A model generated the notes under the pieces. It was given only the letters and a program-made list of their open reading frames with translations. It was not told the DNA's origin and did not search any database. Below are positions 3,182 to 21,968 of a stretch of DNA of 32,000 nucleotides, piece by piece. Each line of letters starts with the position of its first letter. The stretch's first letter is position 1. Location of the stretch: contig CP104013.1 in the NCBI GenBank assembly GCA_025839675.1, forward strand, positions 4,470,001 to 4,502,000, written 5' to 3'. The DNA is from Candidatus Lokiarchaeum ossiferum (lineage in GTDB: Archaea; Asgardarchaeota; Lokiarchaeia; Sigyniarchaeales; Promethearchaeaceae). The position numbers and the translations under genes are program-made.

Positions 3182-4174
3182 TTGTTTGAGAAAACTGTAA
3201 AAAAAATGGTCGATTCAATAGTAGCAAGAACTCTCACGATGGACTTTATTTATTTAGATTTACTTTTTATCTCAATTTGGGTAATTTATCTTATCAAAAA
3301 GAGATATTGGATGCCATTGATCTGGGGTTTTGTTGGGTGGCTTGTCTATATTTTTGTAGACTATTACTTATGGTATCGAGTGATGGGTGTAAGAACGTAT
3401 GAAGGACCGATCAATGACGTTCTGTTTTTCCTGTGGTTTTGTTTTTCTCCTGGATTTGTGCAGTTTTCTTATGTTTTTACTATGTTTGAAAAGCGGAATC
3501 GTAAGGATATTATTCTTATTACCTTAATTTTTTATGTTGGGTGGACGCTTATAGGGCTTGGTTCTCAATTATTGCCCAAAGATGATAGAATAGTTCGAGT
3601 CGCGCGAAATATGAATGAAGCCGCTCAACGAATTTCTTTTACTGCTTTAGTTCTCTTTAATATTTGCATCGCCTTCCTCTTGGTTTGGAAAAAGAGACTT
3701 TCTTGGCAAGATGTCGGTTATCTCTTTCTTGTAGGTACCCTTGTTGAGTTTTGTCTGGAATTTTCTCTCGCCATATCGGGTATTCGTTTGGAACAAGGGA
3801 CTTGGAGTCCAATATTGATGATCGTTAATACTCTAATTGAATTCAATATGGGAATTGTGTTGATGTATCTTATCTGGGGGGGATTCAAGTGGGTTCGCGA
3901 TAGAAATGTGGGCCGTCCCTTGCAATATCAAGATTTTAAATATATTAAAACAGATTTTAATGTAATTTCAAGGCTTGGGTCTGAAAATTTACCCAAAATT
4001 TCCCCAAAAATGGCTAATCGTGTTGTTAAGTTATATAACAAACAAGAAGTTATTTTTGACCTGAGATATTACTTCAAAAAGTATTCAATAACTGATCGAA
4101 AAATTGAAGATGCGATAAAATTGGTTGAGCAAATATATTCCCGTTCGATTTCTCAAGTTTTATTAAGCTCTTGA
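3182..4174 (+). CDS. Polytopic membrane protein with soluble C-terminal tail, unknown function
   Basis: The first ~235 aa contain multiple hydrophobic W/F/L-rich segments and are followed by a ~90-aa hydrophilic tail. The track start is TTG at 3182; the first in-frame ATG is at 3206 (MVDSIV...), so the start is uncertain. Confidence 0.6.
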   Translation: MFEKTVKKMVDSIVARTLTMDFIYLDLLFISIWVIYLIKKRYWMPLIWGFVGWLVYIFVDYYLWYRVMGVRTYEGPINDVLFFLWFCFSPGFVQFSYVFTMFEKRNRKDIILITLIFYVGWTLIGLGSQLLPKDDRIVRVARNMNEAAQRISFTALVLFNICIAFLLVWKKRLSWQDVGYLFLVGTLVEFCLEFSLAISGIRLEQGTWSPILMIVNTLIEFNMGIVLMYLIWGGFKWVRDRNVGRPLQYQDFKYIKTDFNVISRLGSENLPKISPKMANRVVKLYNKQEVIFDLRYYFKKYSITDRKIEDAIKLVEQIYSRSISQVLLSS

Positions 4175-10184: not shown

Positions 10185-10320
10185 GATATTAAATTGGAAG
10201 AAATGCATATTAAATCTTGCATCAAAGGGTAAAATTAAAAACCACAAAGCGTAAAATTAAATTATCGAAGAACCGAGTCGTTAAAATAAAAATAAGAAGG
10301 TCGAGGAAAAAACGCAATAT

Positions 10321-13300
10321 ATGTTTAGTTTCATAGTTCTTGGTGATTCAGCGGCAGCCGTTGATTATTTCGATCATGCTGGCCTTTCGAATATAGATCA
10401 AGGTGATATTTCGAAATGGGAAAAACAGTGCACCTTTCAAGATAATGAAATTGATTTGACCCTCGATGTTCCATTAACTGATGGGTTTGAATATGATGAA
10501 TTTTTACCGATGGCAGATGGTATTTTATACTTTCTAAACCCAAATTTTCCCGAACAATTTGCCTTATTTGAAGATATTGTTCAAATCATTCAGAAAATAA
10601 ATCGAAATGTACCCTTTGCTTTAGTTTTCCGGGATTCTAAACGTTTGATTCAAACCTCAACTAATCAATTACTATTTTCTATATGGGAAAAGTATTCTTT
10701 TGAAGCTTTTATCGCAGATTTAGGCAGTCCTAATTATACAGATTATATTTTGGAAAGTATTTGCGAGAGTATTATAACTCGCCAAGCCATTATTAATCTT
10801 GATACTGCTTGGATGCAGGTACCCTTATTATATTCAAAAGTAAATAGGCACATTAATACTCAAGATTGGATCTCTGCGGCCCGTTTGGTGGAAAAAATTG
10901 CACTTATTTCACAAAAATGTAAAAATTCTGATTGGCAAATTTATGCTGAACAAGCCGCTTGGTTATATGCAAAAGGTGGTGCAGTGTTAGATGCTTCAAA
11001 GATTATTGGTAATTTTAATGAAGTTTACGCTGAACGTTACAAAAAAATTTATGTGGATCAGTTAATTTATCAAGGTAGAGTTCTTCACAATGAGAAAAAT
11101 TTTGCCCAAGCTGCCCAACAATTTGAAACGGCGGGAAATTGGGCACGTTTCGAACTCAGTGATTCTATTTTAATTAAAAAATCCTTAAAAAATGCAATAT
11201 ATTCTTGGATCTCCGCTTGTGAAATTCAAAATGCTTTTTCTCTTTTGGAACGATTTGATCATAATGAAATGATTGATATTTTAGAAGAAGTTACTGACAA
11301 AATTGCTGGGGTTGCTGATTTTCTCACTTCTCAAGGGCAAGATGATTTTGCCAAAGCACAATTATATCTCTGTTTTCAAAAGTATCAAAAAGCGGGATTA
11401 TTTGATTCCATCAAAGTATTTGCTAACAAAACAGTTAAAATTCTTAAACGAATTTTAGAGCGACATCTGCGAAATCTGGATGTTGATTCTGCAAAATTGA
11501 CTCTTGACGAACTTTATAATATTTGGGAGACTTTTGGTATTGAATCTGAAAACATTGACTCGTATCTTTTGCGAGTTGGAACTTTATTTATCGAAAGGCA
11601 AGATTTTCAAAAAGTGGAAGTTATCCTTCCCAAAATTGAATCTGGTGAAATTAAAAATCAACTTTCAAAAGCTCGTATGGATGAAGAAGAACGGATTAAA
11701 TCAGATTTACGACAAGACGAATTGGAGGATTTAACCGATGCTGTCGCTATCCTTAAAACGTATGTAGATGAAGAAAAAAAACAAATTTTGGCATATAATA
11801 GTCAAGTATATCAAGAAACTCAAGATCTCCTCGAACAAAAGCAAATTTCGTCAGGTTTAAAATATATTCATCAATATTTTCAGTGGTTAACGTTTATTGG
11901 TGAATCTGAATTTTCTTATGATGTCTACGAGCGGATTCTCTCTTTTTATCTCACCTTGGGATCTTTTGATAAATTTATTGAAGAAATCTCCCATTTACCC
12001 GAAGGACGGAGAAAAGTGTATCTTCGGGAAAAAGTGTCGATTATTATTAATTCTTTGAACAATCTCATGGTGGATGGCGAGACTACATTGATTTTACACT
12101 ACTCAACTTCCATCATCAAATTATATCGAAATCACCTGCTTTATGATGAGTCTCGTGATTTTGCCGAACTCTTGGTCAAGTTTTTACTTGAAAAAAGTAA
12201 GACCATGGCTCAGCAAGGAATTTTAGCAAGTATCAGTGAATCTATCGGTCTTGTCTCTCAAGTTGAAAACATCTCAAAGATGTATTTGGATTCAAAACAA
12301 TTTGATTTGGATCCCATCTATTCCCCTATTGTTATTTTTTATATAAAAACTGCTGATTTCAAGGAAGCTCGAAAATACAATGAGCGAATTAATTCGGATT
12401 CTCTAAAAGAAACGTATTATTCACAAATTGAAGAAATCGTGGGCGAAAAAAGTCGATCCAAAGCGATGGAGGCTCAACAGAAACAAGAAGTCCAATTTTT
12501 CGTGGAGCAACTCTCGCAATTACGAAATTTGGCTCGAGATCAACGAATTACTTCTGAAAATCTGTTGCGAATGCGGTTAGGTTTAAGAAGACGGTATTTT
12601 CAAAAACCCATTGATCTTATTCTGAAGGGAGAGTTTCCAGACGCTGCTCAACAATATTTTGAAGTCGCAGAAACTTTGATTAAAACAAAGAAATTTGAAT
12701 TGGCAGGAATTAGTGCGGGTATAGGAACTATTCTCTGTCTTTTAGTAAAAAATGTTTCTCTTCTAAAAAATCACTTAGATAAACTTAATCTTATGGCTGG
12801 GGTATCCATTTCAATATTTAAAGAAATATTTTCCGTGAAACTAATCTATTACATTCTTAAAATGATTGAGATTAATAATCCAACGTTAATTATAAATTCT
12901 TTGAAGCTATACGAGAGTTTGGCCTTATTTCCTGAAGAAAAAATGGTCCTTGATACTTTACTTGGAAAAGATATTGATTTTGAAGCATTAGTTCATTCCG
13001 ATCTCAGTTCACGCATGGATTCAGGCGAAATTAAGTTTTCAACGAATCACCAGCATCTTATCGATAAAATCGCGTTTGATCCATCTCAACGATCAAAACG
13101 AAATTCCATTGAACAGAAATTTTGGGAAGAAGCACAAAATTATTTAGCCCGACAAGAATATGAACAAGCATCTTTAAGTTATTTAGCCCAAGTAGATCAC
13201 TTAGTCGTTCGCAATAATGAAAAATTTGCCATTATATCCATCGTAATGGCCTTTTTAGCCTTATTGAAAGCGAAAAAACCTGCAGAAGTTTATTTCGAAT

Positions 13301-14055
13301 ATGAAAAATTTTATTATCAATTTGATAAAAAATATGAACGCGTGGCAAAATCTGAATTATTTGCTTTACTTGAGATAATATTGCAATATTGGGTGAAAAA
13401 AAGTGCTCAACAGACGATTCGACAGATCCTTTTGGCATTTCAATCGAAATTGCCGTTATTTGATTGGGAATCTTCTCTAATTAGTGGCTTTTTAGGGGAT
13501 TTTGAAGGAAAAGGATCTCAAATTTCATCAAATACGGATAAGAATGTGCATCTTGGTTCTCCTGATGAATTTGATGATTCAACTCTTCAAACTCAGCAAA
13601 TTGTGGTTTTAACCCAAGAAATCAGTGATATGCAGTCGAATTTCGCTGAATTGCTCCATAAACGTAATTCAATGGTGAATTCTTATTATAAAGACATAAT
13701 TTCTTACCTGACCGCCGAATCCTATTTAGAGGCTGCTACTGAATATGAAAAGCTTGGGAAACGCATGGCACGACGAAATGATTTTAATGCTGCAAGTTTA
13801 ATGCTTCTCTTATCTCTGCTTTCACGCTTAAAACATAAACAATCGGTGAATGAAATCACTGTTGCCCTTGATACCGTCTTGGGAAAATTAGGAATAGTTA
13901 AAAAAATTCTTGACGATCACTTTGGAGTCAAAATCGCTTATTTTGTTCTGGATGTATTAAAATCTAAAAATGAAAACTTAAAAACAAATATCCGAAACCT
14001 CCTCCAATTATTACCGCTTCTATCTGCGGAAAAGGTACTTGTGCAGTTGGAATAA
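10321..14055 (+). CDS. Giant protein: N-terminal degenerate Ras-like G domain (pseudo-GTPase) fused to a ~1080-aa TPR/alpha-solenoid
   Basis: The N-terminal ~165 aa follow the small-GTPase strand/helix order with every nucleotide motif degenerated. FIVLGDSAAAVDYF stands for ivlGdsGvGKs. IDLTLDVPLTDGFEYDEF stands for v.l.iwDTAGQE. ADGILYFLNP stands for a.g.ilvyD. NVPFALVFRDSKR stands for ip..lvGNKxD. The rest has recurring helical-hairpin signatures of TPR/SNAP-like type (YQGRVLHNEKNFAQAAQQFETAGNW, KGEFPDAAQQYFEVAETLIKTKKFELAG, YLARQEYEQASLSYLAQ, YLTAESYLEAATEYEKLGKRMARRNDFNAAS). Confidence 0.6.
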   Translation: MFSFIVLGDSAAAVDYFDHAGLSNIDQGDISKWEKQCTFQDNEIDLTLDVPLTDGFEYDEFLPMADGILYFLNPNFPEQFALFEDIVQIIQKINRNVPFALVFRDSKRLIQTSTNQLLFSIWEKYSFEAFIADLGSPNYTDYILESICESIITRQAIINLDTAWMQVPLLYSKVNRHINTQDWISAARLVEKIALISQKCKNSDWQIYAEQAAWLYAKGGAVLDASKIIGNFNEVYAERYKKIYVDQLIYQGRVLHNEKNFAQAAQQFETAGNWARFELSDSILIKKSLKNAIYSWISACEIQNAFSLLERFDHNEMIDILEEVTDKIAGVADFLTSQGQDDFAKAQLYLCFQKYQKAGLFDSIKVFANKTVKILKRILERHLRNLDVDSAKLTLDELYNIWETFGIESENIDSYLLRVGTLFIERQDFQKVEVILPKIESGEIKNQLSKARMDEEERIKSDLRQDELEDLTDAVAILKTYVDEEKKQILAYNSQVYQETQDLLEQKQISSGLKYIHQYFQWLTFIGESEFSYDVYERILSFYLTLGSFDKFIEEISHLPEGRRKVYLREKVSIIINSLNNLMVDGETTLILHYSTSIIKLYRNHLLYDESRDFAELLVKFLLEKSKTMAQQGILASISESIGLVSQVENISKMYLDSKQFDLDPIYSPIVIFYIKTADFKEARKYNERINSDSLKETYYSQIEEIVGEKSRSKAMEAQQKQEVQFFVEQLSQLRNLARDQRITSENLLRMRLGLRRRYFQKPIDLILKGEFPDAAQQYFEVAETLIKTKKFELAGISAGIGTILCLLVKNVSLLKNHLDKLNLMAGVSISIFKEIFSVKLIYYILKMIEINNPTLIINSLKLYESLALFPEEKMVLDTLLGKDIDFEALVHSDLSSRMDSGEIKFSTNHQHLIDKIAFDPSQRSKRNSIEQKFWEEAQNYLARQEYEQASLSYLAQVDHLVVRNNEKFAIISIVMAFLALLKAKKPAEVYFEYEKFYYQFDKKYERVAKSELFALLEIILQYWVKKSAQQTIRQILLAFQSKLPLFDWESSLISGFLGDFEGKGSQISSNTDKNVHLGSPDEFDDSTLQTQQIVVLTQEISDMQSNFAELLHKRNSMVNSYYKDIISYLTAESYLEAATEYEKLGKRMARRNDFNAASLMLLLSLLSRLKHKQSVNEITVALDTVLGKLGIVKKILDDHFGVKIAYFVLDVLKSKNENLKTNIRNLLQLLPLLSAEKVLVQLE

Positions 14056-14196
14056 AGAACCCGGACTTTTTACTTTATTTTCTCTTCTACTCTTTCCAGT
14101 GAAAATTTAATGGGTAATGTTTGCTGAAATTCGAACGCGAATTCCTTTAGGTTTAAAGGACTTAGATCTCTTTACTAGGTAATTCTCGAAAGAAAA

Positions 14197-14204
14197 AGGT
14201 GATC
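14197..14204 (+). promoter_or_regulatory. Shine-Dalgarno-like ribosome-binding site (AGGTGATC) for the 14207 gene
   Basis: The 8-nt AGGTGATC ends 2 nt before the ATG at 14207. It is complementary to the conserved 16S rRNA 3' end (5'-GAUCACCU-3'). Weaker GGTGA cores sit before other starts, e.g. 17072-17076 before 17084. Confidence 0.55.
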
Positions 14205-14206
14205 AA

Positions 14207-15562
14207 ATGGGATTTATGGAAAAATTAAAAGAAAGTTTTTCTTCTGTGGCAGCGCAGATGAAAGAAAATACTAAACAACTTGAGAGTGTAATCAAAGAAA
14301 ACTCGGAATTATTGGATTCTCATGATAAACTCAGTAAAGAAAGTGCAGAGGGTATCTTAGAATTAAAGAAATATGGGGAAAAAGAAACTCCTCTCTTAAA
14401 AGATGCTTTTGTTGGTCTCTCAGAGACACTCAAAATGGTGGAAGGAGAACGTGCTAAGATGACTTCTGAATTAAGAAGTCAATTTTTACAACCTATGAAG
14501 GAATTAGTTGCTCAATTTGATCAATTAGAGCGCGAAATCAAAGAAGATGAATCTGCTGCCAAAAAATTGGCAAAAATTAAAAAGAAATTGGACAAAGAAA
14601 AAGCAAAACCGGCTGAAAAACAAAAACCGGGAGCGATTGAAAAAGCTGAAGCTGATTATCAAAATGCAGTCAAGATTGCTGAAAAGGAACATGATGATGT
14701 GATCAAGGCAACCGCTGCATATCAAGAACAAAAAATCAGGAAAATTAAAGAATGCTTGGCTGTGATTGTTGCCCAACATAAAGGTTTTCATCAAATTGTA
14801 CTATCGAATTTAACCGATACTAAAATGTATATTGAAATGATTGTGCCGGAACAGAAGGAAGAGGTCAAAGAAGCTATTGCAGAAACCCTTGAAAATCTGG
14901 AAGAATCGCTTAAAAGTTGTGATCAAATATATACTGTCATCGCCCATGTCAAAAAAGATTTACACTCCGTTATCAAGGAAAACATGGAAATGTTGAATGC
15001 TCACCTGAAAGTCACTAAAGAAAGTAAGGAAGGAATCAACGCTTTTAAAGATTATGGATTGAAAGAAAGTCCTGCTCTCGGTGAAGCTCTATCTTCTTTA
15101 GGGGGTTCACTTGAAATCATAGAAGTTAATAGACAAGCTTTTGTCGAACAAATGAATCATGAATTTATTCGCCCCCTAAAAGAATTGATTGATACTTGGG
15201 ATAAACTCCGAGAATTAATCAAAAAAGATGTTAAATCGCTTAAAAATGATCAGAAAATAGTCCGAAAACTCGAAAAATTGAAAATGCAAGATCCTACAAA
15301 ATTGAAACCTGGTTTATTGGAGGAAAAGGAGAAGGAAGCTGCGTCTATTCGAGATGCGTCTACGAAATTGCACAAATCAATGCTCACATCCTATCAAGAA
15401 TTCACTGCTGCTAAGTCTAAAACCATGAAAAGTTGCTTAGGGTCAATGGTGGAGCGCAACTTAAAGTTTCATAATCAGGCTTTAAATATTATTGATAATG
15501 CAGAAATTTTAGTCTCACAAATTGATATTTCAAAAGAAATGGATTATGAATTGGACATTTAA
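14207..15562 (+). CDS. Tandem BAR-domain-like protein (two ~225-aa three-helix units; the first has an N-terminal amphipathic helix)
   Basis: Internal duplication with a 227-aa offset: S27-VIKENSELLDSHDKLSKESAEGILELKKYGEKETPLLKDAFVGLSETLKMVEGERAKMTSELRSQFLQPMKELV versus S254-VIKENMEMLNAHLKVTKESKEGINAFKDYGLKESPALGEALSSLGGSLEIIEVNRQAFVEQMNHEFIRPLKELI. Each unit matches remembered endophilin/amphiphysin BAR patterns: a ...FGrELG...ALgevGEam..L.evkd.ld.evkqnFidPLq.L block, a K-rich Kkl...r.dyd.kkk segment, and a terminal helix VAQHKGFHQIVLSNL / MVERNLKFHNQALNIID resembling vqAQleYHkQAvqIL. The N-terminus MGFMEKLKESFSSV is amphipathic. Confidence 0.6.
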   Translation: MGFMEKLKESFSSVAAQMKENTKQLESVIKENSELLDSHDKLSKESAEGILELKKYGEKETPLLKDAFVGLSETLKMVEGERAKMTSELRSQFLQPMKELVAQFDQLEREIKEDESAAKKLAKIKKKLDKEKAKPAEKQKPGAIEKAEADYQNAVKIAEKEHDDVIKATAAYQEQKIRKIKECLAVIVAQHKGFHQIVLSNLTDTKMYIEMIVPEQKEEVKEAIAETLENLEESLKSCDQIYTVIAHVKKDLHSVIKENMEMLNAHLKVTKESKEGINAFKDYGLKESPALGEALSSLGGSLEIIEVNRQAFVEQMNHEFIRPLKELIDTWDKLRELIKKDVKSLKNDQKIVRKLEKLKMQDPTKLKPGLLEEKEKEAASIRDASTKLHKSMLTSYQEFTAAKSKTMKSCLGSMVERNLKFHNQALNIIDNAEILVSQIDISKEMDYELDI

Positions 15563-15580
15563 TTACCATTGTTATTTCTC

Positions 15581-15588
15581 TTTTTTTT
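15581..15588 (+). terminator. Oligo-T tract (T8) downstream of the BAR-like gene, candidate archaeal terminator
   Basis: A T8 run lies 19 nt after the stop at 15562, between convergent genes. Archaeal RNA polymerase terminates at oligo-T. Specificity is weak in this AT-rich DNA. Confidence 0.35.
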
Positions 15589-15606
15589 CCGTTTTCTCTA
15601 AATTCC

Positions 15607-16377
15607 TTATATCACCGTTTTAGTGGCATAACAGAGTAAGCTGTCGCTTTCCTTTGGGCGCAAGGGTGATTTTTCATAGGAATCCCAAAAAATAATTTCC
15701 GAAAATTCATATTCCCTTAAAATATTCTTTAATTCCTCTGTGGAAGGTAAATACCAAGAGCTAGTATTCACTTTTTGGGAAAATTTTTCCTCCGCAGCTT
15801 TCTTATAAAATGTAATGAAATCTACATGTTGAATATGGGTTGTTAAATCAGGATCGAAACGTTTTGAGGTGAAAATTTCATATCCATCCTTCGAATGAAC
15901 AATTTTCGAAGTCCAATATCCCTTTCGCGGGTTCTCACTATTTAAAATTTGAAAAAATAACCGCCCTCCATTATTGAGGCTTTCACTAATTTTCTTAAAG
16001 GTCTCGGTGGGTAAGTATTCTCCCCACATCAAAGAAATCGAATTTCCAAGTGAATAAATCACATCAAATTTTTGTTCACATATTGGTTCCTTCACAAAAT
16101 CTTTTTTAGAGAAGGATATCTCGGAATTTGAGTCCTTTATAGCCGATTGGGCGTATTTAATTGAATCCTCACTAATATCAATGCCCTCAAATTCATGGGC
16201 AGGATAATTTTTTGCGAGTTGGGTTAAATGAATTCCGGGACCGCAGCCCAGGTCAAGAATTCGTAATCTTTTTTTCTGGGGAAATGTGTTAATTATTTCT
16301 TCAATAGTTGGTAATTCTCTCTTCAATCGGTTCGTCCAATTAATTGTTTCCAAATACGTTTCCATTTCATTATACAT
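15607..16377 (-). CDS. Class I SAM-dependent methyltransferase
   Basis: Motif I ILDLGCGPGIH, an acidic residue after strand 2 (EGIDISE), and motif post-II (DVIYSLGNS) are typical of the Rossmann-fold MTase layout. Confidence 0.85.
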   Translation of the reverse strand: MYNEMETYLETINWTNRLKRELPTIEEIINTFPQKKRLRILDLGCGPGIHLTQLAKNYPAHEFEGIDISEDSIKYAQSAIKDSNSEISFSKKDFVKEPICEQKFDVIYSLGNSISLMWGEYLPTETFKKISESLNNGGRLFFQILNSENPRKGYWTSKIVHSKDGYEIFTSKRFDPDLTTHIQHVDFITFYKKAAEEKFSQKVNTSSWYLPSTEELKNILREYEFSEIIFWDSYEKSPLRPKESDSLLCYATKTVI

Positions 16378-16406
16378 TCTGGTTCCCCTTTGATATCCTA
16401 CTTCTA

Positions 16407-16694
16407 TTATAGAATTTCACAAATCTCGCAGAGTTCATTTTTAAATTCAGCCCATTTTCCAGTTGATTTTAAATAATTTTCTTTAATCAATAAATCTTTA
16501 AGCCCTTCGTTCTTCCCAAAATCATTTACAAGTATTTCCGAAGGACCCAAATTTACCGAAGGAGAATTTAAACTGATCTCATAGTGTGGATATTTTGTTT
16601 CATCGATTAGCAAAACGGTCATGTTCCCCTTGGAGGCAAAAAATTTCTTCACTAAAATCAAGTTTTCACCTTTCCACTGAATTTTTTTCACCAT
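16407..16694 (-). CDS. Hypothetical small protein (95 aa)
   Basis: ORF 29 nt downstream of the methyltransferase gene on the same strand. No motif recognised. Confidence 0.45.
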   Translation of the reverse strand: MVKKIQWKGENLILVKKFFASKGNMTVLLIDETKYPHYEISLNSPSVNLGPSEILVNDFGKNEGLKDLLIKENYLKSTGKWAEFKNELCEICEIL

Positions 16695-17083
16695 AGGGAA
16701 TCTACGTCCAAATATCTTTGTTGTAGTTCAAAACTTTTCCTCAATTAAATAGCTTACACCTTAAATTTATCGACTTCATCTTTTTAATGTTTTGGCTACT
16801 TAGTTAATTCTCATCAATCTTCAAAAAAAGTGTCTAAAAAAAGTGATTGATTCTGTACTTTTTTTTCACATTCTTCTTGCCGAATTTGCATTTATGTTGA
16901 TCATATGAGACTTACTGTTCGTTTTTTTTCATAAATGTGATCTCCTTTTTCCAAAAAAAAGATCAATAACCTTTTATTAATCACTTTTTCTAATTATGAT
17001 ATAACACTCTGTTGAGTGACTCGTGTGAATTTTTGATCGAGCATCACCCAATTTTTAAGTGATTATATTACGGTGAAAACAAA

Positions 17084-18440
17084 ATGCCAATGGCTGAATT
17101 TACAGATTTACTGACCCAACCTTGGGGGGTTTTTGATGGAGTTGATATCGAGAAGTATATCATCGGAACCTATATTGTCAAAGTCGGAAAAAAACAAAAT
17201 GGACTTACTATGGGACAGTTCGCGGCTGTCGAACAAAGCACCGGAACATGGATTCGTGTTCCTGCTGAAACCGCGGAAGTACGCAAAGATCATGTGGCCA
17301 AATTATTAGGTTGCTATGAAATTCCTAATTGGGAATATGAAATTCCAAAGGATGTGGAAAGTCGCGATTATGTAATGATTATCGGCTGGCCTAAGGTCAA
17401 CTTGCTCAATGAAGATAATAAATTGAACTTTGCTCTCCTCTTTACGGCTTTAATCGGCAATATTTCCATGGGTGGCAAACTCAAACTCATGGATATTTGG
17501 TTTCCCAAAGATATTTTGGCTACCATGCCTGGACCGAAGTTTGGAATTGAAGGGATTCGCAAATATCTTGGAATAGAAAAGCGACCTTTGCTCAATAACA
17601 TGATCAATTAAGAATAGGATTTCCCTATCTTAGATTAAACCGTGTACTGGGCATACGGCTGCTGTCGCTGGTGATTTAGCTTACCAAGTCGCTCTTGGAG
17701 GTGTGGATGTTGTCAAGGATGATGAACTTATCTCCGGGCACGCGTTCAATACCATTGAAGATCGTGTCACTGCCGTTATGGCGGGTTTAGATAAAGCCAA
17801 AGAAGAGACCGGTGAGAAGACTATCTACATGATCAACGTCACCGACAATCTTCCCAAAGTGTATGACAATATTGCAACCGTTCAAGCCCATGGGGGTAAT
17901 GGTATTCTTATTAACTATTTACCACAAGGTCTCTCCGTCGTTCAACATATTGCGGAAGATCCAAGCGTCAAAATCCCAATTCAGATGCACATGGATTTCG
18001 CCGGAGTATGGTATTGCGATGCGTGGAGTGGCGTTACCAGCAAACTTACGCTTGGTAAATTGCCCCGATTAGTGGGTGGGGATGTAGTTGTTATGCCTGC
18101 TCCTTATGGTAAAGCTCCAGTGGTACCTGAACGATTTATTCAAAATGCTATGGAATGTGTATATCCTTTACCTGGCATTAAACCGATGATGCCTATGCCT
18201 AGCGGTGGCATAACTCCTGGTATGGTCGAATTTGCCATGCGAGATATTGGATCAAACATCATGATTGGTGCTGGTGGTGGAATTCATTCTCACGAGATGG
18301 GACCAACATCTGGAGCCATTGCCTTCCGTCAAGCCATTGATGCCTTTATGGCCTGTATTCCTGCCAAGAAAGCGGCCAAAGAACACAAAGAGCTTGGTGT
18401 GGCCATGGGTATGTGGGGCAGCAAAAAAACTGGCAAGTAA
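17084..18440 (+). pseudogene. RuBisCO large-subunit-like protein (form IV/RLP-type active site) interrupted by a 31-nt insert. As encoded it splits into 17084-17611 and 17634-18440
   Basis: N-terminal half: AAVEQSTGTW (aaESSTGTW), LIGNISMG (GNvfg), EKRPLLNNMI then stop. C-terminal half, in the +1 frame from 17634: IKPCTGHTAAVAGDLAYQVALGGVDVVKDDE (iKPKlGl...GGlDf.KDDE), YGKAP (loop-6 GK), PSGGITPG, GAGGGIHSH, GAIAFRQAID. Removing 17606-17636 restores RPLLNNMI-KPC with the same RPLL-to-KP spacing and the same 26-residue K-to-K(DDE) spacing as spinach K175/K201. The track start at GTG 17703 is an artefact of the split. Confidence 0.85.
17606..17636 (+). other. 31-nt self-contained hairpin insert interrupting the RuBisCO-like gene
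   Basis: aattaagaataggatttccctatcttagatt folds as 13 bp: 17606-08 with 17636-34, G17633 bulged, 17609-12 with 17632-29, A17613 bulged, 17614-18 with 17628-24, loop AUUUC. It contains UAA (17609-11) in the upstream frame and UAG (17631-33) in the downstream frame. Boundaries can slide by up to +2 nt (AA/AA). Confidence 0.8.
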
Positions 18441-18458
18441 AACAATATAATTCCACCC

Positions 18459-18482
18459 TTTTTTTTCACGTTTTTTTTTTTT
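18459..18482 (+). terminator. Double oligo-T tract (T8 ... T12) after the RuBisCO-like gene, candidate terminator
   Basis: ccc-TTTTTTTT-cacg-TTTTTTTTTTTT begins 19 nt after the stop at 18440. These are among the longest T runs in the window in a 3' position. Confidence 0.5.
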
Positions 18483-18595
18483 GAGTTTTCATTTTCCCTA
18501 TTATCTAACAATTCAAAGATCCCAGTAAACTAATTTCCCAATTCATCCTTACTCCTACCAAAAATTGTTTTAAGAGGTAAAAAATAAAAAAAGTT

Positions 18596-19453
18596 TTAGT
18601 TTTTGAATGGGGGAAAAGTTTCACTGCCTAGTTTTTTTCTTTCTTGCAGAATTTTTTCAATAATTAATCTAATAACCAGAAATATATTACCCAATCCAAT
18701 TAAAAACCACATGATCTTAATACCCGCTCGATAAGGGATATTTATGTTTACTGCCACACTCCAAAATACAATCAGAGCTTCAATTATCAAAACTGATAGT
18801 TTAGTAAGACCTGATTGTTCTACTAGTATTTTTTTGGGAATAAACCCAAGAAGAAAAAATAGCGAACAACTATAAAAAAAAACATCTAATTCCTTCCAAG
18901 GATAATGTATTGTCCGACTTTGTATATGATTAATTGCGAAAGTTAGTCCAACACCCAGTGCACCCATTATGGGATAATATAAGAATAAATTGAAAAATTT
19001 TGTAAGATGATGAATTGTAATATTTCTATCAGGATAATTTGTTAAAAAATTGATTGTAAGTAGTTCTTTCTGATAAAGGACCAATAAAACCTTCAAGAAT
19101 AGCATCAATATCAGCATTATCATGATAACAGTATACCATACTAATATTCCAGCAATCACGAAGCCGTAATATAACACAAGACCGGAGTAGAAGATCTGCT
19201 TATCACTTTTTGAATGGTTCTTTACTTTTGCTTCGATTAAGTATATTATTATAGGGATAAAAGGAGATAATATGAGTATTCCCAGTTGAAAAAATGTCTC
19301 TATATTTGTTTGATTGTTTAACGGTGGTAAATATGCTGCATTTTTCCAAATCATGACAAAGAAAAAATAGTAAACAAAAAGAAATATTATTAGCCAATTC
19401 AAATCTTGTAGAAATTTCCACACAAGTTTTGGTTTGTTTTTTTGGGACTCCAT
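18596..19453 (-). CDS. Polytopic membrane protein, unknown function (285 aa)
   Basis: About 8 hydrophobic segments rich in I/L/F/Y. No catalytic motif recognised. Confidence 0.6.
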   Translation of the reverse strand: MESQKNKPKLVWKFLQDLNWLIIFLFVYYFFFVMIWKNAAYLPPLNNQTNIETFFQLGILILSPFIPIIIYLIEAKVKNHSKSDKQIFYSGLVLYYGFVIAGILVWYTVIMIMLILMLFLKVLLVLYQKELLTINFLTNYPDRNITIHHLTKFFNLFLYYPIMGALGVGLTFAINHIQSRTIHYPWKELDVFFYSCSLFFLLGFIPKKILVEQSGLTKLSVLIIEALIVFWSVAVNINIPYRAGIKIMWFLIGLGNIFLVIRLIIEKILQERKKLGSETFPPFKN

Positions 19454-19588
19454 ATAAGGAATATCTGGTGTTAATTAATAAAAATAACTAGTAAATCTCT
19501 CCGCTTTTGAAAGATGGATGATAAATTTCCAATTTTAATCGGGATTATTTTATCTCAAAAATTTATTTTCTTAATGCTTACAATCAAA

Positions 19589-21013
19589 TTAGAAATGGAT
19601 AATAAGATTTGGTAAGGATTGTAATTCTGTTGTGACATTTTGGATCGGATTACCGGTCAAATCGATTTCTTGCAAATGGTGTAGCCATTTGATCGAGGCT
19701 GGAATTTTATGGAGTCCACAATTTTTGGCACGAATCGTAGTGATATGGCCGTTTTCACTTGTAAAGGTAAAATCCAATTGATTTTCGGGCTCATCGCCCT
19801 CAAATGTTAGAATATCCATAAATGATTCATCAAATGGTGATAAATTGAACTGATCTTGGAGTTCTAAAAGAAATTCGATTTCTTTAATCGAAGTGGTTGG
19901 AATGGATTGCAATTTCGCATACAGTGCTTTATAGGAAGGGTTTTTTGAAGTTAAAAGGTTATTCAAGGCGAGACGATGAATATGTAATTCATTTTCATGC
20001 TCCAAAGACAAACTTTGCCAAAATTGAGGGTGAATTGGTGCCAAAGGGTTATTTGCTGCGGCTTCCCGAACCTTTGCATCGCTTTCTGTTTCGATACTAA
20101 AAAAATTGCCAAATTCTGAAAACCGAGGTGCTCCCTCACTACGCGCCGCGGATTTTCGAACTTTGGGATCGGGTTCAGTTATTTCGGATAGAAATCGAAT
20201 ATATTCCTTAAAAGATGGTGCTTTTGGATTTTTAGCGATGAAGGTCCGCAGAAAGCCATGCTTGGAACTAAACCCTTTTCTGAAATCGGTTAGGGTTACT
20301 GCGGCGGGCTGTTGCAATAATTGTGTATAATCAACACTCTCAAGGAACAATTCAATCGGAGGATCCATTTGGAAGATTTTTATCACTATTTCCTCAAAAA
20401 AAGGAAATTTGGGATGGTTTGGATCATCGTAGATGTCAGGCACTTGGGAGGGGATATATTCTTCCGGAATATAATGTAACGTTTCTAAGACGGGGATCAG
20501 GTTGGCTATCAAGCAAGAATCATGCCGTTTGCCTTCATAATTGCAATCGGTAGCGATTTGATCTAAAAAATCATATAAATACTTAACATCAATTAAGCTC
20601 ATAAAGCGAAGTAATCGATTGGATAAGGGAATTCCAAGCTGGCTTTGGTTTTCGATGTCTGCTTGAATTTTAAACGCGTCTTCTCCCATTTCTGCAATTC
20701 CTGCAACCCAAGAATTTAGGGCTTGGAAAATGTCTTCCATGGTGAGATCATCCACGATCTTGTCCTCACTGGATTCAGAAAAGATATGGGCTTCTTCAAG
20801 GTCGGTGGGATCATTTTCTTCAGACCAAGGTATTTCATCGGAAGTTGAGAGAGCCAGATGGATACAATCAATTTTTTCTTCCTGGATAATGTCTCCTGAC
20901 TGATTATCTACCAATTGCATTATAACGGATTGTTTTCTGGATTCTGGATCGACATGTGCAATAAGGAATACGTCAGAACGGATGAATTGATGCTTGGATG
21001 TATAATCTCCCAT
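19589..21013 (-). CDS. Repeat protein with HEAT/LRV-type repeats and C-terminal leucine-rich repeats
   Basis: EPDPKVRKSAARSEGAP and ESDAKVREAAANNPLAP match the D..VR..AA.np..P LRV/PBS-HEAT pattern. The C-terminus CGLHKIPASIKWLHHLQEIDLTGNPIQNVTTELQSLPNLIIHF is a canonical LxxLxLxxNxI LRR. Confidence 0.65.
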   Translation of the reverse strand: MGDYTSKHQFIRSDVFLIAHVDPESRKQSVIMQLVDNQSGDIIQEEKIDCIHLALSTSDEIPWSEENDPTDLEEAHIFSESSEDKIVDDLTMEDIFQALNSWVAGIAEMGEDAFKIQADIENQSQLGIPLSNRLLRFMSLIDVKYLYDFLDQIATDCNYEGKRHDSCLIANLIPVLETLHYIPEEYIPSQVPDIYDDPNHPKFPFFEEIVIKIFQMDPPIELFLESVDYTQLLQQPAAVTLTDFRKGFSSKHGFLRTFIAKNPKAPSFKEYIRFLSEITEPDPKVRKSAARSEGAPRFSEFGNFFSIETESDAKVREAAANNPLAPIHPQFWQSLSLEHENELHIHRLALNNLLTSKNPSYKALYAKLQSIPTTSIKEIEFLLELQDQFNLSPFDESFMDILTFEGDEPENQLDFTFTSENGHITTIRAKNCGLHKIPASIKWLHHLQEIDLTGNPIQNVTTELQSLPNLIIHF

Positions 21014-21200: not shown

Positions 21201-21968
21201 ATGACTGAAAACGTTTCTGATGCTTTGCCTGACATTACAAATGCTCTTCATATCACACAACAATATGAAGAATATAATTTTCTCCGTCTTTGGGGAATTT
21301 TTCTTTTGATAGATAGTCTCATTTTTCTAAGTTCTCTTATCCCAATATTTCTCATAACCCACAAAGTCTATTATTTCTATAACAATCCGGGTAGAATATT
21401 GAGAATTGGGCTAAATTTTGTTCAATATTTACTGGTTTTCATTCTATTGATGAGAAGGGGGAGATCAAAAAAAACCAGCGTAAAACTAGGAAAGATGAAA
21501 GTGTCTTTTAATTGGTTGTTCCTTGGAGGACTAATTCTAATATTTCTATTAAGATCACTTCTAAATTTGATAACAAATTTTTTTTCTTTTAGTTTTTGGG
21601 GATATCCTTATTATTATTTCACTGATATAATAATTTTGAGTTTAACAACCCTCTTGTATTATAATCTGATGAGAAAAATCATTTCGCAACATAATTTTAA
21701 AGAATTGAAAATAATTACATTTGTTTTATTTGGGTGGATTGCTGCCCTCATAATACTATTACCTATCTTAAAAATAGATGAATTCTTTAAGTGGGATGAA
21801 ATTTATGTCCCTTTATCCGGTCCTGAAACAGACACAATACAAAGTTCTGATCTTTTCCCAATATTTCAGTATATTGTGTCTCAATTAACAACTTTCATTT
21901 TTCTCGTATGTGAATTTAGATCTGGAATGATAGCCTTAAGGAAATCCAATGAATTATTGAAGAAGTGA
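21201..21968 (+). CDS. Polytopic membrane protein, unknown function (255 aa)
   Basis: About 6 hydrophobic segments. Its stop lies 4 nt before the downstream wHTH gene, so the two are likely an operon. Confidence 0.6.
   Translation: MTENVSDALPDITNALHITQQYEEYNFLRLWGIFLLIDSLIFLSSLIPIFLITHKVYYFYNNPGRILRIGLNFVQYLLVFILLMRRGRSKKTSVKLGKMKVSFNWLFLGGLILIFLLRSLLNLITNFFSFSFWGYPYYYFTDIIILSLTTLLYYNLMRKIISQHNFKELKIITFVLFGWIAALIILLPILKIDEFFKWDEIYVPLSGPETDTIQSSDLFPIFQYIVSQLTTFIFLVCEFRSGMIALRKSNELLKK

Follow-up and report, generated by a model that had tools for sequence, protein, structure and literature searches.

Introns of the bulge-helix-bulge (BHB) type in archaeal messenger RNAs have been reported, in the literature that we searched, only for cbf5 of Crenarchaeota and for the 5′ untranslated region (UTR) of HVO_1309 in Haloferax (PMC7714728; PMC2738675). 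The crenarchaeal case, an intron in the cbf5 pre-mRNA, was described by Watanabe et al. (2002) and Yokobori et al. (2009) (PMC2738675). Relaxed BHB motifs are cleaved only by tRNA-splicing endonucleases (EndA) of the (αβ)2 and ε2 types (PMC5829648); (αβ)2 enzymes accept relaxed BHBs (PMC5829648; PMC2738675), and the EndA of Asgard archaea is of the (αβ)2 type, with an L1 loop and broad specificity (PMC5829648). Our literature search found no report of a BHB mRNA intron in Lokiarchaeum or any other Asgard archaeon. Here we analyze a stretch of 32,000 nucleotides (nt) from the genome of Candidatus Lokiarchaeum ossiferum B-35 (about 33% GC), hereafter called the window, to whose positions all coordinates refer, and in it a gene for a RuBisCO-like protein that is interrupted by 31 nt. 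We consider it likely, at a probability of roughly 0.78, that these 31 nt are a relaxed BHB intron in the mRNA of a form-IV RuBisCO-like gene, that the intron lies within the codon that specifies the catalytic Lys175, and that it would be cut out by EndA and the exons ligated by RtcB. If this is true, it would be the first BHB mRNA intron in an Asgard archaeon, with apparent in vivo evidence from public data, and it would provide a dated case both of intron retention (synonymous divergence, dS, of about 0.5) and of intron loss through allelic replacement. Work on eukaryogenesis has L. ossiferum B-35 as a reference organism, and since annotation splits its RuBisCO-like gene into two unrelated fragments, metabolic reconstructions miss the intact enzyme.

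The open reading frame (ORF) at 17084–17611 on the plus strand comprises 175 codons in the ORF list and translation and is closed by TAA at 17609–17611. The downstream frame is closed by TAG at 17631–17633, after which IKPCTGHT... runs open to the stop codon TAA at 18438–18440. Taking out 31 nt yields a single ORF of 441 amino acids, which reads ...NNMIKPCTGHT...GGVDVVKDDE in the translation of the joined sequence and in which the junction lysine is residue 175 and the KDDE motif lies downstream. Much of this had been claimed in a sequence-only reading of the locus, and these claims stand: the gene is split by a 31-nt insert, deletion of 17606–17636 restores ...NNMI-KPCTGHT..., and, with the positions of both stop codons confirmed, no single frameshift can join the two halves. 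The deletions 17606–17636, 17607–17637 and 17608–17638 all yield the identical ORF because AA precedes the insert and AAA comes after it. In the register that the BHB motif predicts, the gene is laid out as follows.

17084–17607, plus strand: exon 1, codons 1–174 and bases 1 and 2 (AA) of the Lys175 codon, from the ORF and homology.
17608–17638, plus strand: the 31-nt intron in the BHB-predicted register, holding TAA 17609–17611 and TAG 17631–17633.
17639–18440, plus strand: exon 2, from the third base of the Lys175 codon to the stop codon TAA 18438–18440, KDDE included.

An exact look-up identified the GenBank fragments of the split B-35 gene as UYP47557.1 (175 amino acids) and UYP47558.1 (245 amino acids), the second starting at GTG 17703. 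RefSeq holds a 268-residue C-terminal protein, WP_457920137.1, whose MKPCTGHT start lies on ATT 17634–17636 within the insert. Both second fragments, as well as the 175-residue N-terminal 'enolase', are artefacts of an unrecognised intron.

The evidence for removal of the insert comes from public assemblies. A cluster at 90% identity holds proteins of 441 and 439 amino acids that are identical to the conceptually joined B-35 protein (P0126 and P0128). Joined proteins are encoded on three Logan contigs, L084 (run SRR32148622), L085 (SRR32148623) and L086 (SRR32148620), which match the window over 1.8–3.9 kb without exactly the 31 nt. The junction observed in all three is ...AUGAUCAA|ACCG...; extended, the spliced junction reads ...AACATGATCAA|ACCGTG..., and the corresponding predicted junction peptide is PLLNNMIKPCTGHTAAVAGDLAYQVALGGVDVVK. 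The aligned parts of L085 and L086 have zero mismatches to B-35, L086 carrying one extra A at 18873, and the ends of L084 and L086 consist of non-genomic or mismatched sequence. On the side of the gene, contig coverage in these runs extends from 17020 or 17023 to 18859, 19443 or 20984: the 5′ ends of L084 and L085 both fall at 17023, and L086 fuses 31 non-genomic nt to 17020. Further contigs from the same runs cover 10309–16658 and 10237–16558 at 100% identity, and all five contigs terminate at divergent promoter regions. No contig of these runs holds a complete copy of the gene for a 255-residue protein at 21201–21968. The 175-codon ORF is likewise found in no contig of SRR32148620, SRR32148622 or SRR32148623 and is seen only on a DNA-type contig, so that the spliced form appears to dominate in these runs. 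From this behaviour of the contigs and from a preprint in which the public transcriptomes of B-35 are given as a consecutive series of six experiments (SRX27494461–66), we infer that the three runs are RNA-seq, since their coverage is uneven and bounded by transcription units, as in RNA-seq and not in DNA assemblies. Of the explanations offered in the sequence-only reading, it is one put forward there as an alternative, a tiny RNA-level intron, that these insert-less transcript-like contigs favour.

The tails of the contigs can be described further. The 5′ tail of L086 (its nt 1–31) is G+C-rich and non-genomic, and L084 ends at about 3913–3953 in a non-genomic 3′ tail of about 40 nt with the pattern GGTGGATG...GATGAA. 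This pattern resembles the 5′ end of 23S rRNA; an E-value scan of the RNA-type contigs against Rfam gave no significant matches, tails included.

The insert itself is present in DNA. The DNA-type contig on which the 175-codon ORF is seen, SRR22273277_1057 of Logan (21.7 kb, three samples), is 100% identical to window positions 14084–20611 (about 6.5 kb), insert included, and runs across every gene and divergent promoter of the region. A second, divergent lineage was reached through a cluster member of 220 amino acids: the environmental contig ERZ26802894 NODE_170 (62.4 kb, here L170) has the gene order of the window, and a Logan assembly of ERR13917544 (L171) represents the same lineage, which was thus assembled twice from a different sample. 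Over 3.7 kb, L170 and the window share 84% nucleotide identity, and at the insert site L170 has the same 31 nt without a single difference; its spliced ORF is intact, 441 amino acids long and 96.8% identical to the B-35 protein. The insert is not an assembly artefact, as had been considered earlier, because it is present in independent DNA assemblies including that of this second lineage.

Comparison of orthologues for presence or absence of the insert, which had been suggested as a check, gives an identical insert in the L170 lineage and none in the other relatives checked. At the sequence ATGATY|AAR CCN a clean indel separates B-35 from its insert-less relatives, among them a metagenome-assembled genome (MAG; L002), the sister strain CP163304.1 (L083), Promethearchaeum syntrophicum, Harpocratesius and others. 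In the alignment with L002, the closest intron-less homologue (93% amino acid identity), it is a single clean indel of 31 nt, with ATGATC before it and AAR CCG after it. The insert is absent at the site in the sister strain and in the six other relatives checked, and where genomes and metagenomes were scanned for the protein's relatives, all matches that reach the insert site are uninterrupted there. With the 175-residue fragment as query for further split alleles, only the L170 lineage was found. Two candidates for further intron cases were rejected: the partial match of L124 stops at a contig end, and L155 (Ga0209013_10032920, 965–2154) is probably a chimeric metagenome contig. The RuBisCO-like gene of L155 is 78% identical; the match ends at residue 258, after which follows an ORF that by eye resembles bacterial ribosomal protein L23.

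A genome-wide search for further copies of the insert had also been proposed; the search that was run covered the window, which holds a single copy, and the JGI metagenomes and IMG/VR, which hold none. At most a 2-nt AA duplication borders the insert, when it is examined for a target-site duplication of the kind associated with miniature inverted-repeat transposable elements (MITEs) or insertion sequences. Rfam at gathering threshold gave no match over the window, and the insert is therefore not a known RNA family. tRNA genes, sought for a comparison with local tRNA introns, are found neither in the window nor in 10 related loci.

Between the B-35 and L170 genes 132 of 1357 sites differ, with a dS of 0.54 and a ratio of nonsynonymous to synonymous rates (dN/dS) of 0.037 (0.055 in exon 1 and 0.029 in exon 2), and neither exon of either lineage has any further stop codon or frameshift. 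By this comparison the gene has been under strong purifying selection while it bore the insert, which excludes a decaying pseudogene. That there is no sign of decay, as the earlier reading had held, is borne out by the intact spliced ORFs of 441 codons and by this selection. The differences between the two lineages are absent from one zone.

17585–17683, plus strand: 99 nt identical in both intron-bearing lineages, namely the intron with 23 nt upstream and 45 nt downstream.

This is the longest mismatch-free stretch in the gene, the runner-up measuring 47 nt; it has the intron at its centre and nearly the same extent as a predicted stem at 17585–17658. With codon-position rates taken from the rest of the gene, the chance of finding no difference comes to 3e-4 in the exonic flanks and lies between 4e-5 and 4.5e-3 in the intron, and in simulation a run of at least 99 nt anywhere in the gene has a probability of about 0.001. 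The invariance of the zone may reflect either constraint on an RNA structure or a short tract of recent conversion.

How firmly the absence of the insert from the three runs can be read as splicing depends on what was sequenced. Were the SRR321486xx runs DNA of an insert-less B-35 sub-population or of a later culture, the insert would be a recent or precisely excising DNA element that is never removed from RNA. Such DNA heterogeneity is the main residual rival and hinges entirely on the library type, which was deduced as described above; moreover, intron-less alleles do exist in related strains (L083, L002). We nevertheless regard it as unlikely. Contigs of different runs break at the same divergent promoters, some with non-genomic tails, and one neighbouring gene has no complete copy among them, while the DNA-type run spans the whole region in a single contig of 21.7 kb. 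Outside the 31 nt, the aligned parts of L085 and L086 are free of mismatches, and an identical insert is carried by a lineage that is 16% divergent, in a gene under strong purifying selection.

Another line of evidence for a BHB intron is the predicted fold of the RNA at the junction. The minimum-free-energy fold contains a bulged stem of 10 bp at 17608–17633, and in stability the local fold exceeds shuffled sequence (z = −2.9). An inverted-repeat finder run on the window did not list the insert hairpin. A hairpin of 13 bp coextensive with the insert had been described earlier; the hairpin holds but the perfect 13 bp do not, the arms pairing only with single-nucleotide bulges. In that reading the anatomy of the locus was correct, and the archaeal host and the BHB fold at the junction went unrecognised. 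We fitted the BHB first by hand and then by an explicit pair check and energy evaluation, with the following parts.

17602–17605, plus strand: central helix H, 5′ strand GAUC (exon 1), 4 bp with 17633–17636.
17633–17636, plus strand: central helix H, 3′ strand GAUU (3′ end of the intron), from the pair check.
17606–17608, plus strand: 5′ splice-site bulge AAU, 3 nt, directly adjoined by the inner helix, with predicted cleavage at 17607/17608.
17609–17632, plus strand: intron inner helix h′ and its loop AUUUC (17619–17623); 17609–17613 pair with 17628–17632 and 17615–17618 with 17624–17627, A17614 being bulged.
17637–17641, plus strand: 3′ splice-site bulge AAACC, 5 nt, relaxed, with predicted cleavage at 17638/17639, from the pair check.
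17589–17601, plus strand: exon-1 strands of the outer helices, 17598–17601 pairing with 17642–17645 and 17589–17594 with 17648–17653.
17642–17653, plus strand: exon-2 strands of the outer helices, from the folds.

All four pairs of the central helix are present (G17602–U17636, A17603–U17635, U17604–A17634 and C17605–G17633), and both bulges lie 3′ of their own central-helix strand, as the BHB motif demands. The outer helix forms when 2 nt of slack are allowed; with zero slack, U17601–C17640 and A17600–C17641 are unpaired, and the site has no canonical 3-nt 3′ bulge directly joined to an exon–exon helix. With the BHB imposed the fold has −16.2 kcal/mol, and without constraint the optimum is −17.5. 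Were each bulge cut between its residues 2 and 3, 17608–17638, 31 nt, would be excised and the junction seen in L084, L085 and L086 would be left. The same position between residues 2 and 3 is the rule for cbf5 introns (PMC2738675). Registers 17606–17636 and 17607–17637, examined by hand, were rejected since they have no central helix; the motif test at the site was run on register 17608–17638.

The full motif test asked for a central helix with 4 of 4 pairs, an adjacent inner helix of at least 4 bp and an outer helix of at least 4 bp with 0–2 nt of slack; its core, the HBh′ test, was set a priori, and the slack was set after the site had been viewed. The actual site passes; of 63,780 virtual introns of 31 nt placed arbitrarily in the window, only 5 do. 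Since the insert already forms a hairpin by itself, we also transplanted it into 15 other ORFs, at 18,723 positions and with all equivalent registers allowed; 8 positions (0.043%) passed the full test and 87 (0.46%) the core test. When the intron was placed virtually in nine intron-less alleles, in what is a descriptive comparison only, exon–exon stems formed in none of the nine, and the energies ranged from −7.7 to −12.8 kcal/mol, against −16.2. Synonymous sites in the outer helix, which is coding sequence, show no change between B-35 and L170.

From these parts a course of splicing can be proposed. Transcription of the RuBisCO-like gene would begin at about 17023. In the pre-mRNA, GAUC (17602–17605) at the end of exon 1 would pair with GAUU (17633–17636) at the 3′ end of the intron into the 4-bp central helix, bordered by the 3-nt bulge AAU (17606–17608) and the relaxed 5-nt bulge AAACC (17637–17641), with the intron hairpin on one side of the helix and the exon–exon stems on the other. 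EndA would cut each bulge past its second nucleotide, at 17607/17608 and at 17638/17639, and RtcB would join the exons, thereby rebuilding the AAA codon of the catalytic Lys175 and restoring the reading frame; unspliced RNA would give only the 175-residue fragment. We infer EndA and RtcB as the enzymes, and likewise the exact register of cleavage.

Several points weigh against this proposal. The RNA nature of the libraries was deduced from contigs and from a preprint that gives SRX and not SRR numbers. The intron alleles are identical from 17585 to 17683 and so provide zero evidence from covariation, and the invariance of this zone could equally mark a tract of recent gene conversion. With 5 nt in place of 3 in the 3′ bulge, the motif is relaxed and non-canonical, and the slack of up to 2 nt in the full test was chosen post hoc. 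The spliced product cannot fix the register of cleavage, given the AA/AAA ambiguity, and the part given to EndA and RtcB in B-35 is drawn by analogy.

These points leave some room for excision from the RNA by another route, for instance by a different endonuclease and ligase. That the 3′ bulge is non-canonical, that covariation is lacking and that the assignment to EndA is one of analogy would all suit such a route. Group I, group II and spliceosomal introns were rejected, however, on the grounds of the 31-nt length, which is too short for a group I or group II ribozyme, the absence of GT at any possible 5′ border and hence of GT–AG, and the lack of Rfam matches. The BHB register, furthermore, predicts exactly the junction that is observed, and we know of no other archaeal pathway for removing tiny introns. 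We therefore consider a route apart from EndA and the BHB to be quite improbable.

A deletion during cDNA synthesis would also produce insert-less contigs: reverse transcriptase might skip the hairpin, which is flanked by a 2-nt AA microhomology in a layout that permits a jump, and the spliced contigs would then not reflect real RNA. Yet the hairpin is weak, A/U-rich and bulged, with about 10 bp; a longer direct repeat, ATTAA, would remove 27 nt and not 31; and the deletion form was assembled in three libraries in which no contig holds the 175-codon ORF. The frame is restored exactly, too, and purifying selection indicates that the whole protein is expressed. An artefact of this kind is very unlikely. 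Much the same can be said of a true pseudogene, a gene inactivated without rescue by a palindromic insertion, which the earlier reading had listed as a recent event. The two separate fragments annotated in GenBank and RefSeq, and the absence of the intron from the sister strain and six other relatives, would be expected of one, but two insert-bearing lineages with 132 differing sites, a dN/dS of 0.037 and no further stop or frameshift in either exon contradict it, as do the transcript-like contigs without the insert, and we hold it very improbable. Programmed translational bypass in the manner of gene 60, with take-off at AUC 17603–17605, the hairpin skipped and landing at AUU 17634–17636, was the explanation worked out most fully in the sequence-only reading and does find both isoleucine codons flanking the gap, the early stop and the hairpin in place as described, but it is extremely unlikely, since the exact 31 nt are missing from the transcript-like contigs of three runs and leave nothing to skip, the two codons are synonymous but differ, the stop comes second and not first after take-off, the take-off codon lies outside the hairpin, the exon–intron pairing of the BHB motif plays no part in bypass, and translational bypass has, to our knowledge, never been reported in archaea.

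Returning to a spliced BHB intron, its history can be read in part from the sister strain CP163304.1. Upstream of the gene the sister is about 98.6% identical to B-35. Within the gene its divergence is 21.7% in nt 1–120, 3.6% in nt 121–480 and 16.3% from about 17564 onward, the last being above the 10.8% of L170. Downstream of the gene nothing is alignable, and window positions 18441–19431 have no counterpart in the sister. Window positions 17084–19431 thus look like a hotspot of recombination and replacement that starts within the RuBisCO-like gene. Probably the common ancestor of B-35 and L170 already had the intron, and the sister strain lost it when a divergent intron-less allele took the place of part of the gene; a recombination breakpoint may lie about 40 nt upstream of the intron site in that strain. 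As for the neighbouring gene on this side, B-35 has one for a membrane protein of 285 amino acids, and the sister one for 203 amino acids.

Elements that may govern expression of the gene can be listed together.

16994–17004, plus strand: an A/T-rich TATA-like element, TTATGATATAA, read from the sequence about 24 nt upstream of the apparent 5′ end of the transcript.
17020–17023, plus strand: the apparent transcription start, from contig 5′ ends, giving a 61-nt leader with a GGTGA motif resembling a Shine-Dalgarno sequence just before the ATG.
18459–18482, plus strand: oligo-T runs 3′ of the stop codon, read from the sequence and probably an archaeal terminator.

TATA-like elements (ATATTAAAT at 10207–10215 and TTATGATATAA at 16994–17004) lie about 24–28 nt upstream of the transcript-like 5′ ends 10237 and 17023. 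They fit archaeal promoters, though at 33% GC this is weak evidence.

The joined protein matches thousands of homologues of the RuBisCO large subunit, those of Promethearchaeota being the top matches, and the homologues carry Pfam RuBisCO_large. Its nearest solved structures are the 2,3-diketo-5-methylthiopentyl-1-phosphate (DK-MTP-1-P) enolases 2OEK and 2ZVI, and the junction lysine aligns with the conserved lysine of 2OEK. At the position where RuBisCO has the motif IKPKLG, the joined protein reads IKPCTG. With NCBIfam models of the enolase and of RuBisCO all scores for the joined protein were under the cut-off, and on sequence grounds the host gene is therefore classed as one for an uncharacterised form-IV RuBisCO-like protein. 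The subfamily to which it belongs (loci L011–L082) shares about 50% identity with many Actinomycetota, Chloroflexota, Bathyarchaeia and other MAGs, and an active-site stretch of the type LLNNM[IV]KPCTGH is common to its Lokiarchaeial members. This spread suggests that an uncharacterised enzyme may have been transferred between domains.

Elsewhere in the window, at 14207–15562 on the plus strand, lies the gene of a 451-residue coiled-coil protein that by eye has two similar halves. Pfam gives a weak match to FAM92 that stays below threshold (E = 5e-4); we take FAM92 to be BAR-like, and the protein could be one of membrane curvature, which would be of interest in an Asgard archaeon.

Tentatively, the intron may belong to a broader class, so far unannotated, of introns that EndA splices from Asgard protein-coding genes now filed as split genes or pseudogenes, a class that short recombination tracts could spread or erase and in which splicing could act as an on/off switch for the host enzyme like that of HAC1/XBP1. 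Spread and erasure by such tracts would fit both the 99-nt invariant zone and the breakpoint 40 nt upstream of the site in the sister strain; the proposal as a whole is doubtful.

Taken together with the systems already described, the locus most resembles cbf5. Both have a small intron in protein-coding sequence (33–39 nt in cbf5 where lengths are given, 31 nt here), a relaxed or 'unconventional' BHB at the exon–intron borders with cleavage, here predicted, between bulge residues 2 and 3, an interrupted codon of a catalytic residue, a host lineage with hetero-oligomeric EndA of broad specificity, and gain or loss that is specific to lineages. In contrast, cbf5 encodes a pseudouridine synthase of Crenarchaeota and the host gene here a RuBisCO-like protein of a mesophilic Asgard archaeon. 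The Lokiarchaeum intron differs further in a length that is not a multiple of 3, in the stop codons that it holds, in its 5-nt 3′ bulge, in being found so far in only two closely related lineages and in a loss, in the sister strain, that coincides with a recombination mosaic. With HVO_1309 of Haloferax volcanii (PMC7714728) the locus shares an mRNA as substrate, here predicted, of the tRNA-splicing endonuclease, but there the intron lies in the 5′ UTR of a euryarchaeal host and leaves the reading frame uninterrupted. The BHB introns of archaeal tRNAs and rRNAs share with this locus the motif predicted here, a 4-bp helix with a bulge 3′ of each of its strands, and also the enzymes predicted here, EndA and RtcB; what sets the present case apart is a messenger as host, with an outer helix formed by coding sequence in which the synonymous sites are frozen.

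Two further systems are alike in layout or outcome. In HAC1/XBP1 a tiny frame-shifting intron (26 nt in XBP1) is removed from mRNA by the endonuclease IRE1 and an RNA ligase, either RtcB or tRNA ligase, with no spliceosome. The Lokiarchaeum locus would share with it the tiny frame-shifting mRNA intron and, by prediction, a protein endonuclease followed by RtcB-type ligation, whereas IRE1 recognises twin stem-loops and not a BHB, and splicing there is a stress-regulated switch. In T4 gene 60 and the 'byp' elements of Magnusiomyces, as here, a hairpin and an early stop lie between synonymous codons. There, however, the gap stays in the mRNA, whereas the Lokiarchaeum site has two different flanking codons and a stop set apart from the take-off codon, and its transcript-like contigs are without the gap.

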